64,000 nucleotides of DNA, from assembly GCF_963921235.1 (NCBI RefSeq), contig NC_086097.1:95668001-95732000 (forward strand). Direction: 5' to 3'. Position numbers and translations under genes: made by a program. This document shows, one piece after another, positions 1-62,219 of the stretch. The notes below the pieces were generated by a model. The model saw nothing but the letters and a program-made list of their open reading frames with translations. It was not told the origin of the DNA and made no database searches. The number at the start of each line of letters is the position of its first letter. Position 1 is the first letter of the stretch. The stretch comes from Mobula hypostoma. Its lineage: Eukaryota.

Positions 1-417
1 CTCTTGTATCTGGTGAATTTTTACATCACAGCTTCAAATTGGCATGAACTCCACTCAGTGACAACGTCTCCTCTCGGGGTTCTGTCCCCACCCCTTACTT
101 TGCTATGTGTGCACAGCATAGTGACACTTGAAAATGCAGACAAAAAAATAACCAGTAAACTTTAGTACCACAGCCAGTTTCAAGTTATTGATCACATTTG
201 TTACAGGATATTCCAAGGTTGCTATTGACTAGTCAGAGCTGGCCTTACAAGGAAGCTGTATGTTTGTCACCAAACAATGAGTTCTGTCTCTTACAAATTC
301 CAAAGGCTGTCTCCTGCAGATCCCCTGCACATTTTCACTTTTGTTAGAATTGGGACTCAATCCTCTCCGAACTTCCACTCCCACTTCACATCAACAGGCC
401 CTGGACCCCTAAACACT

Positions 418-575
418 TCAATCCTCAACACTTGCAAAACTTGGCTGGGCAGAAGTCATCTCCTACTCTGCACTGCCTACACCATCAATTCCAGGCTAAG
501 CCTGGATTTCAATGAGCCAAGGTGCGCAGCAGCAAGGCAAAGACGACTGAGAGAGCAGTCGTGTAGTTATACGTC
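418..575 (-). pseudogene. mta1: Probable degenerate last coding exon of MTA1 (RITTRLLSQSS...PW...QPSFASVED*)
   Basis: Acceptor ttttctttgcaag; RI..RLLS resembles KIRKLLS; ends VED-TGA like the MTA1 terminus IED*, at about the expected length. Frameshift near the start and two internal TAG stops. Similarity is weak. Confidence 0.55.
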
Positions 576-772
576 CTTGCAAAGAAAACTCAGGTGTGAC
601 GATACATCCATAGACCAGGTATTTACACATTTGCATTAGATTTTTAATCAATGAGCAGGCTCAGGCTTTTTTTTTTGAGGGGGGGAATGGAATAATGATG
701 TTGGGTTCTCAAGTGAGGCATCAAGAATCATTGTTGATCAGCTAAGGGGTTAGAAACCTTCAACAAACTTAC

Positions 773-909
773 CTGGTTTCATCGGTTGGCATGAAAAAGA
801 CATTACCGGGGCACTAGCACTGATCCTGTTCAGCTACCTACACTCTACTGCTCGTGGAGCTCTGATACTGGTTATATCTCCCACTGACCACAAAGTTTCA
901 AGCAGGTCC
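773..909 (-). pseudogene. mta1: Degenerate penultimate MTA1 exon (GPA*NFVVSGR...PGNVFFMPTDET/R); only GPA + TGA (898-909) could still be coding
   Basis: Acceptor cctcctgcag|GGA and donor AG|gtaagt intact, phase 0-2. Ends resemble MTA1 GPSRNLLLNGK and PDDVFYMATEETR. In-frame stops at codons 4 (TGA), 24 and 32 (TAG); LNRISA (cf. MNWIDA) lies in a shifted frame. Confidence 0.82.
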
Positions 910-4104: not shown

Positions 4105-6365
4105 CAGGAACCTCTTACCTCTTTCAGACATAGGCCCTTCAGCTCATGATGTGCCAAACTAATTAAACTAACCCCTTCTGCCTGCATGTGGTCCCTAACC
4201 CTCCATTCTCTGCACATACACGTACCCATCTCGTAGCCTCTCTTCCATCGGCATCCACCACCACCCAGGCACTCAGCAATCTCTGTGTAAAAAAACCTGC
4301 TCTGCACTTCCCTTTCAATTCGCTCTCTGGCATCTTAAGTGAAAGCCCTCTCAAATTACAAAATTTCAACACTGGGATAAAGATACCAGCTGTCTACTCT
4401 ACCTATGCCTCTCACAGCTTGAAAGAACCTTCACATCTCCCCTCAGCCTCCACCACTTCAGAGGGAACAGCCCAAGTGTGCCCAACCTGTTCTTCCACCC
4501 CACGCCCTCTCCTTCCACCCCACGCCCTGCCCTTCCACCCCACGCCCTGCCCTTCCATCCCACGCCCTGCCCTTCCACCCCACGCCCTCTCCTTCCACCC
4601 CACGCCCTGTCCTTCCACCCCACGCCCTCTCCTTCCACCCCACGCCCTGCCCTTCCACCCCACGCTCTCTCCTTCCACCCCACGCCCTGCCCTTCCACCC
4701 CACACCCTGCCCTTCCACCCCACGCCCTGCCCTTCCACCCCACGCCCTCTCCTTCCACCCCACGCCCTCTCCTTCCACCCCACGCCCTGCCCTTCCACCC
4801 CACGCCCTCTCCTTCCACCCCACGCCCTGCCCTTCCACCCCACGCCCTGCCCTTCCACCCCACGCCCTCTCCTTCCACCCCACGCCCTGCCCTTCCACCC
4901 CACGCCCTGCCCTTCCACCCCACGCCCTCTCCTTCCACCCCACGCCCTGCCCTTCCACCCTACGCCCTGCCCTTCCACCCCACGCACTGCCCTTCCACCC
5001 CACGCCCTCCTTCCACCCCACGCCCTGCCCTTCCACCCCACGCCCTGACCTTCCACCCCACGCCCTGCCCTTCCACCCCACGCCCTCTCCTTCCACCCCA
5101 CGCCCTCTCCTTCCACCCCACACCCTGCCCTTCCACCCCACGCCCTCTCCTTCCACCCCACGCCCTGCCCTTCCACCCCACGCCCTCTCCTTCCACCCCA
5201 CGCCCTGCCCTTCCACCCCACGCCCTCTCCTTCCACCCCACGCCCTGCCCTTCCACCCCACGCCCTCTCCTTCCACCCCACGCCCTGCCCTTCCACCCCA
5301 CTCCCTGCCCTTCCACCCCACGCCCTGCCCTTCCACCCCACGCCCTCTCCTTCCACCCCACGCCCTGCCCTTCCACCCCACACCCTCTCCTTCCACCCCA
5401 CGCCCTGCCCTTCCACCACACGCCCTCTCCTTCCACCCCACGCCCTGTCCTTCCACCCCACGCCCTCTCCTTCCACCCCACGCCCTGCCCTTCCACCCCA
5501 CGCCCTCTCCTTCCACCCCACGCCCTGCCCTTCCACCCCACGCCCTCTCCTTCCACCCCACGCCCTGCCCTTCCACCCCACGCCCTCTCCTTCCACCCCA
5601 CGCCCTGTCCTTCCACCCCACGCCCTCTCCTTCCACCCCACGCCCTGCCCTTCCACCCCACGCCCTCTCCTTCCACCCCACGCCCTCTCCTTCCACCCCA
5701 CGCCCTGCCCTTCCACCCCACGCCCTGCCCTTCCACCCCATGCCCTCTCCTTCCACCCCACGCCATCTCCTTCCACCCCACGCCCTGCCCTTCCACCCCA
5801 AGCCCTCTCCTTCCACCCCACGCCCTCTCCTTCCACCCGACGCCCTCTCCTTCCACCCCACACCTTCTCCTTCCACCCCACGCCCTGTCCTTCCACCCCA
5901 CGCCCTGCCCTTCCACCCCACGCCCTCTCCTTCCACCCCACGCCCTGCCCTTCCACCCCACGCCCTCTCCTTCCACCCCACGCCCTGCCCTTCCACCCCA
6001 CGCCCTCTCCTTCCACCCCACGCCCTCTGATCCAGACAGCATCCTAGTGAGCCTTTTCTGCACTTCCTCCAGGCCTGCACATCCTCCCCACAGCAAGGCA
6101 ACCAGAACTGAATGCAATACTCCAGATGGGGCCCAACCAGAGTTTTAAAACGCTACAACCTAACTTCCTGACTCAAGTGCCTCGACTACAAGTATGCCAG
6201 CTACCTTCTTTACTGCCATTTCAGCTTTCAGGGAGCTATGGACTTGGACAGCAAAATCCCTCTGATTTTCAGTGCTGTTAAGGGTTTTGCCTTTAACAGC
6301 ACAGTGGCCTTTTGCATTTGATCTCCTGAAAGGCAACATGCCTCACTTGCTGTTTCTCTGCCCAT
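4105..6365 (-). mobile_element. Old degenerate CR1 LINE 3' remnant, split by a 20-bp minisatellite
   Basis: Minus-strand peptides LEEVQKRLTRML (to ~6030) and RLGTLGLFPLKWWRLRGD, FFTQR (below 4490) resemble the CR1 ORF2 C-terminus. Confidence 0.7.
4488..6028. repeat. 20-bp minisatellite CCTTCCACCCCACGCCCT(GC/CT), about 77 copies
   Basis: Direct reading; 20-bp period with a two-state GC/CT variant and one 2-bp deletion near 5008. Confidence 0.98.
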
Positions 6366-13166: not shown

Positions 13167-13198
13167 CATCTGTCTCCCTTGTGTGTGGTTCATCATAC
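13167..13198 (-). CDS. mta1: MTA1-like micro-exon (G/MMNHTQGRQM), 32 bp, phase 1-0
   Basis: Acceptor ttctgctttttgcag|GT, donor ATG|gtaagg; resembles MTA1 GLANHGQARHM. Confidence 0.88.
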
Positions 13199-14590: not shown

Positions 14591-14626
14591 CCTTATAAGG
14601 CATCAGGAAGCGTTTCTTCATATTCC
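14591..14626 (-). CDS. mta1: MTA1-like micro-exon (G/NMKKRFLMPYK/G), 36 bp, phase 1-1
   Basis: Acceptor gtcttttcccag|GG, donor G|gtaaga; matches MTA1 GNMKKRLLMPSRG. Confidence 0.93.
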
Positions 14627-16603: not shown

Positions 16604-16750
16604 CATTGGTATCATTGTGCAGCTCGTAGCTACGCTTGCCCAGAATAGTGGGAGAGCTGTGGTTTAAGATGGGCATCATCTTGGCAGGCGTCACGTTGCT
16701 GATGTGCAGACTAGCCTGAGCACGCTCCTGTTTCGGGCATGGATGAGCTT
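16604..16750 (-). CDS. mta1: MTA1-like exon (E/AHPCPKQERAQASLHISNVTPAKMMPILNHSSPTILGKRSYELHNDTN), 147 bp, phase 1-1
   Basis: Acceptor ccttctttattcacag|AA, donor G|gtcagt; TPAK...SPTILGKRSYE.HN matches MTA1; read manually. Confidence 0.93.
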
Positions 16751-44819: not shown

Positions 44820-44909
44820 CTAAGTATTGCACAATTGTTTCCAAGGGTTTTCTAACAGCACGCTTCAGCCCTGTGGCTCGATTTTCTGCTTCTGGTAATC
44901 GCAACGTAC
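44820..44909 (-). CDS. mta1: MTA1-like exon (C/TLRLPEAENRATGLKRAVRKPLETIVQYL), 90 bp, phase 1-1
   Basis: Acceptor tgcaccag|GT, donor G|gtaagt; resembles MTA1 CTARLPEA...LKQAVRKPLEAVLRYL. Confidence 0.94.
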
Positions 44910-48407: not shown

Positions 48408-48591
48408 ACTCTGCCTTGATGGCGGCACTGTTAATTGGCACATACGGATGCCGGGCTGCCTGTTGCAGAATGTCTTGACACAAGCGCCGGGCTATTCTTG
48501 TCAGCTTGGTCGTGCACAGGTAAAAAGCCTGTCGTGTCTTCACAGCAAACTTGGGCCTGGTGCTATTCCTCATCGGCGTGCCGTGGGCACT
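48408..48591 (-). CDS. mta1: MTA1-like exon (SAHGTPMRNSTRPKFAVKTRQAFYLCTTKLTRIARRLCQDILQQAARHPYVPINSAAIKAE), R1 RBBP4-binding region, 184 bp, phase 0-1
   Basis: Acceptor gtctctccag|AGT, donor T|gtgagt; KTRQAFYL, TTKLTRIARRLC and AARHPY.PINSAAIKAE match MTA1. Confidence 0.96.
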
Positions 48592-49617: not shown

Positions 49618-50025
49618 CTCAGGGACTGCCGTGGTTCAAGAAGGCAGCTCATCACCACCTCCTCAAGGGCAACTAGGGATGGGCAATAAATGCCGGCTTA
49701 GCTGGTGACTCCCACATCCCGTAAATGGATAATTTTTTAAAACAAGCAACTAAATTCTGGAAGAGGCGACACAATCTTTTCCCAAGGATAGAGGACGTAG
49801 GTTTAAAGTGGGAGGGAAAGATTTAAAAGGAACCTGAGGGACAAGGTTTTCTCACAGAGTGTGGTGGGTAATATGAAAGAGCTGTCTGGGGAGGAGGTGG
49901 GTACAATCACAGTATTTAAAAGATATTTGGTACGTGTACACCTAAAGGAAAGATTTTGTGGGACGTGGGCCAAATGTAGTCAAATGGTACCGAAGAGCCT
50001 GTCTCCGTGGTGTAATACTCTTCGA
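49618..50025 (+). mobile_element. Two adjacent LINE/SINE 3'-end fragments (49618-49730 and CR1 49770-50025)
   Basis: GGTTCAAGAAGGCAGCTCA.CACCACCT.CTCAAGGGCAA.TAGGGATGGGCAATAAATGC tail, then CR1-type FKVGGERFKRNLR and F.QSVVG remnants. Confidence 0.65.
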
Positions 50026-51675
50026 CACTGATACTGATCATTTAGTATATGGGACTCTGATACTGACCATTTAGTATATGGGACCTAGTATATGGGATTC
50101 TGATACTGAACATTTAGTATATGGGACCAAGTATATGGGACTCTGCTACTGACCATTTAGTATATGGGACTATGATACTGACCATTTAGTATATGGGACT
50201 CTCCGACTCTGATACTGACCATTTAGTATATGGGACTCTCCGACTCTGATACTGACCATTTAGTATATGGGACTCTCCGACTCTGATACTGACCATTTAG
50301 TATATGGGACACTGATACTTACCATTTAGTATATGGGACTCTCCGACTCTGATACTGACTATTTAGTATATGGGACTCTGCAACTCTGATACTGACCATT
50401 TAGTATATGGGACTCTCCGACTCTGATACTGACCATTTAGTATATGGGACTATGATACTGACCATTTAGTATATGGGACTCTCTGACTCTGATACTGACC
50501 ATTTAGTATATGGGACACTGATACTGACCATTTAGTACATGGGACTCTCCGACTCTGATACTGACTATTTAGTATATGGGACTCTGCAACTCTGATACTG
50601 ACCATTTAGTATATGGGACTCTCCGACTCTGATACTGACCATTTAGTATATAGGACTCTGTTACTGACCATTTAGTATATAGGACTCTGTTACTGACCAT
50701 TTAGTATATGGGACTCTGATACTGACCATTTAGTATATGGACACTGATATTGACCATTTAGTATATGGGACTCTGATACTGACCATTTAGTATATGGGGC
50801 TCTGTTACTGACCATTTAGTATATGGACACTGATACTGACCATTTAGTATATGGGACTCGGATACTGACCATTTAGTATTTGGGACCTTGATACTGACCA
50901 TTTAGTATATGGGACTCTCTGACTCTGATACTGACCACTTAGTATATGGACACTGATACTGACCATTTAGTATATGGGACTCGGATACTGACCATTTAGT
51001 ATTTGGGACCTTGATACTGACCATTTAGTATATGGGACTCTCTGACTCTGATACTGACCATTTAGTATATGGGGCTCTGTTACTGACCATTTAGTATATG
51101 GGACTCTGATACTGACCATTTAGTATATGGACACTGTTACTGACCATTTAGTATATGGGACTCTGATACTGACCATTTAGTATATGGACACTGATATTGA
51201 CCATTTAGTATATGGGACTCTGATACTGACCATTTAGTATATGGGGCTCTGTTACTGACCATTTAGTATATGGACACTGATACTGACCATTTAGTATATG
51301 GGACTCGGATACTGACCATTTAGTATTTGGGACCTTGATACTGACCATTTAGTATATGGGACTCTCTGACTCTGATACTGACCACTTAGTATATGGACAC
51401 TGATACTGACCATTTAGTATATGGGACTCGGATACTGACCATTTAGTATTTGGGACCTTGATACTGACCATTTAGTATATGGGACTCTCTGACTCTGATA
51501 CTGACCATTTAGTATATGGGACTCTCTGACTCTGATACTGACCATTTAGTATATGGGGCTCTGTTACTGACCATTTAGTATATGGGACTCTGATACTGAC
51601 CATTTAGTATATGGACACTGATACTGACCATTTAGTATATGGGACTCTGATACTGACCATTTAGTATTTGGGACC
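50024..51675. repeat. Minisatellite, 29-bp core ACTCTGATACTGACCATTTAGTATATGGG with 28- and 37-bp variants, ~1.65 kb
   Basis: Direct reading; no unique spacers. Confidence 0.98.
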
Positions 51676-52151: not shown

Positions 52152-52303
52152 CAGATTATTCCGGTGGGGTCCCGGCCTTTCTCCGTCCAGTCGGGTGGGT
52201 GTTTTCAGTCCACCGTACTTTTTCCAATAGCTCCAGCAGGCTACGCAGAGACGGCACTGCATGTTGGGGGGTCCCCAGGAATACCACTGGTGTGACTGTG
52301 TGG
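52152..52303 (-). CDS. mta1: MTA1-like exon ([50 protein letters not shown]), GATA zinc finger, 152 bp, phase 1-0
   Basis: Acceptor tttccccag|CC, donor CTG|gtaact; [10 protein letters not shown] is MTA1-type rather than MTA2/3-type. Confidence 0.96.
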
Positions 52304-54088: not shown

Positions 54089-54219
54089 TGAAGCAGCTCT
54101 CGCATGCTCGCCCAGGTCCCAGCACTGCTACTGTCCCATTTGGCGCCAGCACACCGCCTCCATTCATCGCTCCCGCCTTTGCATTCGTCCCATTGATCTG
54201 GTTTGGGTTTGGCTTATTA
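54089..54219 (-). CDS. mta1: MTA1-like exon (NKPNPNQINGTNAKAG...GPGRACESCF), first CxxC of the GATA-type zinc finger, 131 bp, phase 2-1
   Basis: Acceptor ctctttag|T, donor A|gtgagt; NKPNPNQI and GRACESC motifs. Confidence 0.95.
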
Positions 54220-55250: not shown

Positions 55251-55309
55251 TAGTTGGGGATGTAGACTTGCTTCAGTTTACTCTCTGCTTCAGCCGCTTT
55301 CAGCCGTTT
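55251..55309 (-). CDS. mta1: MTA1-like exon (KRLKAAEAESKLKQVYIPN/Y), 59 bp, phase 0-2
   Basis: Acceptor ctttatcttag|AAA, donor TA|gtaagc; highly conserved MTA peptide; not in the ORF track, read manually. Confidence 0.96.
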
Positions 55310-56852: not shown

Positions 56853-56927
56853 CTGCTGGACATATCGGTCCGTGGTCTTCCACATATAGTAATACTCGAC
56901 AATGCTCGTTAATGACTTCCAGGGTAA
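56853..56927 (-). CDS. mta1: MTA1-like exon, end of SANT domain ([25 protein letters not shown]), 75 bp, phase 0-0
   Basis: Acceptor ttattcaaag|TTA, donor CAG|gtaatg; peptide nearly identical to vertebrate MTA1/2/3. Confidence 0.96.
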
Positions 56928-59960: not shown

Positions 59961-60809
59961 CAAGTTAACACTATTTAAGTGAAACACTGGTCGTCATGAC
60001 CTTTTCCAATTTTTGAGCCTCTGAGTTGGAAGAGAAAGCAAGAGCATTAGATGATGATCTACAAGTATACTGTGCCCACCTGGGTGAGCTGCATTGTAGG
60101 ATCTTCTCTTAATGCAAATTCCAGACTGGGGGTAAATCCATTCCTGAACACTTGTAATGAGGAATTAACAAGGAGGATGGAGGAAGATCTGATCTCACCA
60201 CAAAATGACTTTGAGCTGAAGCCGAAGTTCAAAAAAATCAAATCAAGACTTTTGGTCATAGAAAGAAATCTCTGAACACTAACTGTCCTGCACTTTGGGA
60301 AAAAAGTCAAGATGTTCTTTATTGCCTTTCCAACATCATATTCAGTCAGCCAAATTCTTTCAAACCAACGAATAGGCTGCAAACTACTGAACGTGGGGAT
60401 CTGAGACTCCTTCTGAGTGACATTCAGCCTGATGTTGAGAAGCTGATGTCACTGCACCAAACCCATCCATCTCATTGAAAGGTGAAAAAGCAATGAATCA
60501 GTGAACAGTTGGACTACTAAGGTACTCTCTAAAGTTGTTGATGAAAACTATTTTGCTGTAACTAAATAAAGAAATAATTTTACTTGCAGCTTCAAATAGA
60601 TTTGAATGATTTTTGCAATTAATTGTCATCGTAAATCAAAATTCTTCATAGTTTTTTATGTAATGGCTGGAAAGAGAGGGGGTGCGTGCTGGGGGTGTGG
60701 TCTGGGAGCCAAGAGGGTGGTAACCAAAAAAAGTTTGGGAACTACTGTTGTAGCATTTCTCCAAGTCACTTGTTCACTATTACTGCATAAGAAATTTCGA
60801 AGTACAAAC

Positions 60810-61625
60810 TGTAAGTTTATTATCAAAGTACGTATATACAACCCTGAGATTCGTTGTCTTATGGGCATACTCAATAAGTCCATAATGGAATCCGTGAAAG
60901 ACTGCACTAACTTGGGAATTCAACCAAGACAACGAACTATGCAAATACAAAAAGAAAGAAATAATAATAATAAATCAGTAAGCAATAAATATCGAGAACA
61001 TGAGATGAAAAGTTGTTGAAAATGAGTCCATAGGTTGTGGGAACATTTCAATAATTGGCGGGGGGGTGGGCTCTGACGATGGATGCTACTTTCTTGCAAC
61101 AACACTCCATGTAAATGTGCTCAATGGTGGGAAGGGCTTTACTGTGATGGACTGGGCTATGTCCACTACTTGTTTGAGGATTTTCTGTTCAAGGGCACTG
61201 GTGTTTCCATTCCAGGAGAGACGCAGCCAATCAATATAGTCTCCACTACACATCAACAGAAGTTTGTCACGACACGCTGAATCTTCACAAACTCCTAACG
61301 AAGTAGAGGCACTGCTGTGCTTTCTCCGTAATTGCACTTTTGTGCTGGTCCTTCTAAATACCAGCATCGAGGAATTTAAAGTTGCTTACTTAATTTAAAT
61401 TTAAATTTAAATTTAAAGATCCTCTGATGAGTACTGGCTCGTTGACCTCTGGTTTTCCTCTCTTTACATTATTGATCAGCCCACAGTCATAAGTGTAAAG
61501 CAAGTAGAGCAAGGGGCTAACCTTGTGGTTCACCAGTACTGATGGATATTATGGAGGAGATGTTGTTGCCATTCCAAACCGACTGGGGTTTTCAAGTGAG
61601 CAAATTGAGGCTCCAATTGTACAAG
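60810..61625 (-). mobile_element. Decayed Rex1/Babar-type LINE 3' fragment
   Basis: Minus-strand W.GNTSALEQKILKQVVDIAQSIT...P peptide. Confidence 0.65.
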
Positions 61626-62219
61626 GATCTTACATGACACTTACATGATCTAATTTCCTTCACTCTCTTTTAATGGCAATGTGGAAGCAAAATGTGTGTG
61701 TGCTTCTACCGGAGACGAGACATTCTGAGCAGTCTGATTGCACTTGCTGACAAACATGCAAGTAAGTGTTTTTATATTATGTAAAATTTTGATACCACAT
61801 TGCTTACAAAGCCTATCCCACCACTCTGAAAAGTTGGTGGAGAGATGCGGTCCCCATTTTTTTCTTGGTGGTATTATTCCTCCTTGATGCCACACTTCTT
61901 CAAGTGTTGCTTTGGTCCCAAAGACACTGCTGGTAGAATTTTGTTGTTTTGTTCATGTTTGGAGTGAAGTTTTAAATAAGGTCAGGAGCTAAGCTGAGCA
62001 CCAGTGAGGTAATCTCATAGTCAATTCTGCTTGACGCCATTTCAGTAATAACATTCATCATTTTGTTAATCAAGTGCAGTTACAATTTTTGTTTTTTGCT
62101 GGCACATATAACTGGAAAATGTTCCATAGAAACTTGTAGTTTATTGATTTATTTATTTTGACACACAGAGTGTTACAGGCCCTTCCCAGCCCAGCAACAC
62201 ACCTGTTGATCACTAGCTA

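Follow-up and report, generated by a model that had tools for sequence, protein, structure and literature searches.

Does the MTA1 gene of the devil ray Mobula hypostoma, which encodes a scaffold of gene silencing, still specify R2, the second RBBP4/7-binding repeat of the protein and a putative dock for the histone chaperone RBBP4, and, if it does not, how did this region come to be lost? The question is raised by a stretch of 64,000 nt (hereafter the window; NC_086097.1, here C1, positions 95,668,001 to 95,732,000). A preliminary description of the window, made from its letters, held that the two terminal exons of an MTA1-like gene have decayed while the exons upstream are intact, leaving a naturally truncated MTA1 convergent on MTA3.

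The attribution to MTA1 agrees with the phylogeny. In a quick IQ-TREE search of 46 proteins with their tails removed (midpoint root, without bony-vertebrate MTA2 and MTA3), the locus groups with bony-vertebrate MTA1 with 95% SH-aLRT support, and by this placement the gene is the MTA1 orthologue. It is not MTA3, that gene being the copy on C22 beside HAAO, which we take to be the neighbour of human MTA3. As for the genes that we assume to lie near human MTA1 in 14q32, PACS2 and BRF1, a PACS gene is found 4 Mb away on the MTA1 contig and BRF1 64 Mb away, that is, on the same chromosome and not adjacent. The genome contains three PACS-family genes (C1:91.6 Mb, C2:115.2 Mb and C82:5.8 Mb).

Nine ancestral exons of MTA1 lie in the window (Table 1). 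All have AG/GT ends, as first described, and their joined frame is open and equals the last 311 residues of P0031 (M. hypostoma MTA1 X2); together with a 57-nt exon that had been overlooked, they give a sequence identical to the last 330 residues of P0024 (M. hypostoma MTA1 X1). The 5′ exons of the gene are located upstream of these, on the same strand. Pfam recognizes BAH, ELM2, SANT, GATA and R1 in this order in P0031, all five above cut-off, and the protein matches sawfish MTA1 at 581 of 608 residues. With its upstream exons open and spliced transcript contigs present, the locus as a whole is not a pseudogene, and the upstream lesions that the preliminary description had named as a sign of this are absent. 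Among the gene-model records listed, the 57-nt exon is confined to Mobula; as to its origin, sensitive blastn and nhmmer searches returned no genome match beyond the exon itself and none among the examined loci. The introns of the gene are rich in repeats: a 21-kb tandem array of about 565 copies of a 38-nt unit (18868–39942) fills most of one of them, and further arrays are found at 4486–6026 (20-nt unit) and 50024–51674 (29-nt unit).

Table 1. Features of the MTA1 locus of M. hypostoma and of two MTA paralogues (window positions unless a contig is given)
Feature	Position	Strand	Remark
Start of last MTA1 intron	1..772	-	continues 21.4 kb past window base 1
Region 418–575	418..575	-	similarity at chance level; intron
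Dead penultimate exon, 137 nt	773..909	-	pseudoexon
57-nt in-frame exon, +19 aa	12723..12779	-	spliced in X5 and X13, absent in X17 and X19; records P0015/P0024
32-nt exon	13167..13198	-	final ancestral exon ahead of the skip; spliced contigs
36-nt coding exon	14591..14626	-	
147-nt coding exon	16604..16750	-	
90-nt coding exon	44820..44909	-	second part of R1
184-nt exon	48408..48591	-	R1, first RBBP4/7-binding repeat (PF17226), intact
152-nt exon	52152..52303	-	GATA zinc finger
131-nt coding exon	54089..54219	-	
59-nt coding exon	55251..55309	-	
75-nt exon	56853..56927	-	second half of SANT domain
True last MTA1 exon	G000:C1:95646617-95646470 (L005:8617-8470)	-	outside window
Front part of young same-strand LINE, last MTA1 intron	G000:C1:~95658600-95657550	-	outside window
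MTA3 R2 exons	C22:38201538-38201675 (L013:6538-6675); C22:38171127-38171276 (L019:6127-6276)	-	open
Fourth MTA paralogue ('MTA1-like')	C40:39569799-39701481	+	best-kept R2

The segment at 773–909 is a dead copy of the penultimate MTA1 exon, which measures 152 nt in relatives. It is flanked by an AG acceptor and a GTAAGT donor, both canonical, and a tblastn search with shark and ray MTA1 proteins maps it to residues 600–650 of sawfish MTA1. The similarity to MTA1 suspected from the start is significant, since the frameshift-aware score against these residues is 110, whereas 60 shuffles reach at most 37. Read in its ancestral frame, the exon shows two nonsense mutations (CGA>TGA at codon 4 and CAG>TAG), deletions of 5 nt and of 15 nt (the latter in frame) and an insertion of 5 nt, with two resulting frameshifts, and many substitutions besides these five lesions. 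Its translation had been given with three stops; these are indeed present in the first reading frame of the exon, but two of them are by-products of the shifted frame, and the true nonsense codons number two overall. A DNA search of the genome with the dead exon returned a single match, the exon itself, and this DNA search thus revealed no further penultimate exon in intact form elsewhere, the protein search, which was stricter at its first pass, giving a floor. Inclusion of the dead exon would end MTA1 three residues into it, 125 nt upstream of the last joint. By its homology, its lesions and its skipping in contigs (see below), in a host gene that is open and transcribed, 773–909 is a pseudoexon.

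The fate of the last exon is different. The preliminary description placed a weaker remnant of it at 418–575, which we rejected: the sawfish last-exon peptide scores 18 against 401–600, a value reached by 90 of 100 shuffles, and with the squirrel peptide 88 of 100 shuffles score as high. The real last exon sits outside the window and is open in its old frame for 48 codons, with no stop and no indel (80% identity to sawfish, score 199), so that one exon has decayed rather than two. At equal rates, the chance that all five lesions land in the dead exon is 0.057. The skipped exon does not contain a whole number of codons, and the last exon is consequently decoded in a different frame after the skip, yielding the nine residues EDPQVTYFF and then a stop. 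Thus, R2 is lost because exon skipping puts an intact last exon out of frame. An intact downstream copy that is spliced in, which had been named as an observation that would speak against terminal decay, exists for the last exon, but in a shifted reading frame, and the penultimate exon stays dead. Messenger RNAs whose stop codon lies in the last exon generally escape nonsense-mediated decay, and the skip mRNA is accordingly predicted to be stable.

Splicing was checked in four of 24 listed runs, one for each of four coded organisms; the RNA nature of X5, X13 and X19 is a software guess, and X17 carries no label. The three exons at 16750–13167 are spliced in all four. Contigs of X17 and X19 join the 32-nt exon (13167) directly to the last exon, and those of X5 and X13 join the 57-nt exon (12723) to it. 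The dead exon is skipped in every one of these runs and occurs in no contig that reaches the last exon; in contigs of 4490, 5064 and 5070 nt, the record coordinates leave no space for its 137 nt. Spliced contigs could miss a rare inclusion, as contigs drop rare isoforms. The resulting proteins, of 608 or 627 residues, lack R2. In the observed forms of MTA1, R2 is not encoded in frame, the penultimate exon being dead and skipped and the last exon out of frame. The proposal of a naturally truncated MTA1 is thereby borne out in part: the gene is spliced, the forms in the four runs are without R2, and the exons of the window are the tails of the records.

The truncation as such is not a novelty of this lineage, for the skip form is already an alternative isoform in gene models across the cartilaginous fishes. 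Full and skip forms of MTA1 are both found in models of at least nine species from chimaera to skates, namely, among the records listed (the best 15 of 18, 15 of 34 and 15 of 22 cluster members), Callorhinchus, Heptranchias, Heterodontus, Carcharodon, Hemiscyllium, Pristis, Narcine, Rhinoraja and Leucoraja. By contrast, the penultimate exon is absent from seven of seven records of Hypanus, Hemitrygon and two Mobula species among the matches listed. The X1 records tell the same story, with 608–627 residues in Hypanus, Hemitrygon and Mobula against 694–702 in sawfish, electric ray and skate. If, as we assume, the ray phylogeny places stingrays and devil rays together, the simplest reading of the gene models and RNA contigs would be a single loss of the exon in their common ancestor. 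The R2-less MTA1 models of birds, frogs, coelacanth and bowfin arise differently, through another last exon; this conserved alternative last exon is seen in P0226, P0276, P0285 and P0301 (bird, coelacanth and frogs) and in P0110/P0111 (bowfin). A model of Hemitrygon MTA2 shows the same kind of skip as MTA1. Unique changes are more numerous in the stingray lineage than in sawfish with each of three outgroups (21:4, 22:3 and 16:4, significant). An acceleration on the stingray stem was nevertheless rejected as not specific: the electric-ray and skate branches (0.042 and 0.054) are as long as or longer than that of stingrays (0.042), and hence the sawfish is merely slow.

What had R2 become before the exon was lost? 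Structures of RBBP4 with MTA R2 have been solved. Seven R1 residues that contact RBBP4 are given as identical in human R2 (PMC4841774), KRAARR at 678–683 is described as essential, and residues 670–695 are both the stretch that binds best and the structurally resolved part of human R2 (PMC4139204). This stretch is encoded entirely by the last exon and not by the dead one. Scored on the seven key residues of PMC4841774, human MTA1 R2 keeps seven, chimaera five, Heptranchias four, and sawfish, electric ray and skate three. The old frame of M. hypostoma MTA1 keeps three and has R>W and R>Q changes in addition; sawfish R2 keeps the four basic contact positions, so that its binding of RBBP4 may be weakened rather than gone. 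The assumption that the site taken away could still bind RBBP is doubtful, because shark and ray MTA1 R2 keeps only three to four of the seven key residues.

The genome holds four MTA genes, and the three paralogues, on C40, C82 and C22, keep both R2 exons open, with six, four and four of the seven key residues, respectively. The gene on C82 corresponds to MTA2 records, and a PACS gene is found 1.5 Mb away from it. The C22 gene matches MTA3 records and lies ~92 kb from HAAO, exons of which match two to three times at C22:37993298-38078693 (+), suggesting a tandem or assembly duplication. In the tree, both R2 exons end six of the ten cartilaginous-fish MTA3 rows. The fourth gene, on C40, is kept by sharks, rays, chimaera, sturgeons and basal teleosts, its clade (97%) including chimaera, sturgeon, paddlefish and, among basal teleosts, bonefish and tarpon; vertebrate MTA paralogues are described as three in PMC6576150. 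MTA3 is stated to be without R2 in any species in PMC4841774, a statement echoed in PMC8908386 and PMC6576150. The open R2 exons of ray MTA3, and those in the cartilaginous-fish MTA3 rows, contradict this statement of PMC4841774. Convergence on MTA3, as put forward in the preliminary description, would accordingly hold for the MTA3 of mammals and not for that of the ray itself, which keeps both R2 exons in the same genome. Our literature search, outside which most subscription papers lay, found no paper on loss of R2 from MTA1, R2 in fish MTA3, a fourth MTA gene or MTA1 in Mobula.

Taken together, we consider it probable that, in the ancestor shared by stingrays and devil rays, selection on a penultimate exon that was already optional relaxed and the exon decayed, leaving the exon dead and skipped and R2 lost. 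According to the gene models, cartilaginous fishes would make two MTA1 ends, one with the exon in (~698 aa, with R2) and one with the exon out (~608 aa), the skip shifting the reading of the last exon so that a stop follows nine codons, with a predicted escape from nonsense-mediated decay. The R2 of elasmobranch MTA1 had already drifted from the RBBP4-binding consensus in sequence and, presumably, in function. This drift, together with three R2-bearing paralogues, would make the long MTA1 form likely dispensable. The exon would then have gathered its five lesions until the short form was the only one left, as observed in this genome and presumably also in other myliobatoids. The truncated MTA1 should still bind HDAC1/2 through ELM2–SANT and one RBBP4/7 per chain through R1, and a NuRD core assembled around it would contain fewer RBBP subunits than a core around a paralogue with R2. 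Counting against decay under relaxed selection are the open old frame of the last exon, the value of 0.057 given above for the distribution of the lesions, and the splice sites of the dead exon, which are still canonical.

The open old frame would be accounted for if part of R2 were still made, that is, if another joint restored the old frame and hence the C-terminal half of R2, as an isoform of ~646 residues or a peptide of 49. Four nt into the last exon there is indeed an AG from which the frame stays open as far as the old C-terminus, and the chimaera models P0083/P0086 use the equivalent joint; in our material, however, the +4 joint was found in none of the four runs. A second route is offered by the LINE in the last MTA1 intron, whose reverse transcriptase is confirmed by Pfam, whose first ORF matched no Pfam family, and which we take by eye to be L1-like. 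A GT donor behind this first ORF (C1:95657550, L006:9550) is joined to the last exon (L005:8617) in X5, with a word depth of 84.8, about nine times that of the gene's own joint (9.4). The joint creates an ATG in the old frame, from which the 49-residue peptide could be read, and its frame would cover the resolved stretch 670–695 of human R2, wholly encoded by the last exon (PMC4139204). Yet the joint was seen in one run of four and is preceded by three short upstream ORFs, and the LINE is young, 40 scored copies being 98–100% alike over 111 nt; as the cause of the last exon staying open it was rejected as too young. The peptide itself would have three of the seven key residues with the R>W and R>Q changes. 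In other runs the old frame shows three changes, two in X13 and one in X19, all of them replacements (A>V, P>H and I>F), which speaks for decay under relaxed selection, and two fall within the C-terminal EPIVIED, a motif with a putative SUMO-binding role. As compared with the 3′ UTR, the old frame differs at 1/118 against 26/570 positions in X19 (one-sided p 0.038), 0/118 against 11/570 in X17 (p 0.12) and 2/118 against 5/570 in X13 (p 0.90); the greater conservation in one of these three comparisons may reflect residual use. On balance, we regard a surviving partial R2 as quite unlikely. The canonical splice sites of the dead exon could alternatively hint at a poison exon, included at a low level so that the stop at codon 4, upstream of the last joint, triggers mRNA decay and tunes the amount of MTA1. 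Inclusion was observed in none of the four runs, and the five lesions and many substitutions resemble free decay, which makes this very improbable. A further observation in the window, at ~60500–62200 on the plus strand, is a second copy of an early MTA1 exon and its flanking intron, inverted and decayed, which lies inside a later MTA1 intron (87% over 343 nt, 61670–62012) and is frameshifted by a 2-nt insertion in a TG run. This copy could point to an assembly error or a pseudogene of the whole gene. The intact early exon, however, is at C1:95797008-95797109, the upstream exons are open and match sawfish as noted above, the five lesions are of different kinds, and the exon is skipped in contigs of four organisms, so that we attach next to no probability to this explanation.

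A selective alternative is that jawed vertebrates require an MTA scaffold carrying just one RBBP site, a role which mammals would assign to MTA3 and these rays, with R2 kept in MTA3, to MTA1. The pattern is indeed reciprocal, ray MTA3 having both R2 exons and MTA3 being reported as R2-less in PMC4841774, PMC8908386 and PMC6576150, and R2-less isoforms of MTA1 also occur in birds, frogs, coelacanth and bowfin. Since R2-less isoforms existed beforehand, however, their fixation needs no selection, and the rate comparison shows no acceleration confined to the stingray stem. Such a swap therefore seems unlikely to us. It is tempting to speculate, with some reluctance, that R2 was already present in the ancestor of the four jawed-vertebrate MTA genes and that the part of a one-RBBP scaffold has passed from one paralogue to another, being taken by MTA3 in mammals and by MTA1 in stingrays and devil rays. 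If this were true, single-site NuRD would be a maintained function and the rays a natural reciprocal experiment on R2.

Decay of an optional exon, the reading we prefer, has precedents for its product. RefSeq models of MTA1 from M. hypostoma (P0024/P0031), M. birostris, Hypanus sabinus and Hemitrygon akajei give the same R2-less proteins of 608 or 627 residues; these are listed as products only, to which the present analysis adds the dead exon and the disappearance of the long form. The skip isoforms of other cartilaginous fishes (Pristis X6, Leucoraja X3 and Callorhinchus X7) have the same joint and the same nine-residue out-of-frame tail, but there they are optional beside the full form, which is no longer possible in M. 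hypostoma. Human MTA1 (715 aa, R1 and R2) is the orthologue with the same domain order. Its variant MTA1s lacks R1 and R2, and ZG29p consists of the C-terminal part only, neither being a fixed loss of one exon (PMC4244562). Mammalian MTA3 likewise comprises BAH, ELM2, SANT, GATA and R1 without R2 and is predicted to bind one RBBP4/7 per chain (Millard 2016, PMC4841774); it differs in being another paralogue with an independent loss, as ray MTA3 keeps both R2 exons.

The NuRD core of 2:2:4 MTA:HDAC:RBBP is described as evolutionarily conserved in PMC4841774. As the protein models are already in RefSeq, the value of the present findings is comparative and corrective rather than that of a new mechanism. 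Their effect on the animal is probably small, since mouse MTA paralogues are largely redundant (PMC6576150). The locus offers a plausible ordered path to the loss of a domain, from an optional exon through drift of the binding motif to the death of the exon. Its most useful by-product is the reversed MTA1/MTA3 pattern: at the sequence level, this genome shows the reverse arrangement, with MTA1 lacking R2, MTA3 carrying both R2 exons and a fourth MTA gene whose R2 is the best preserved.
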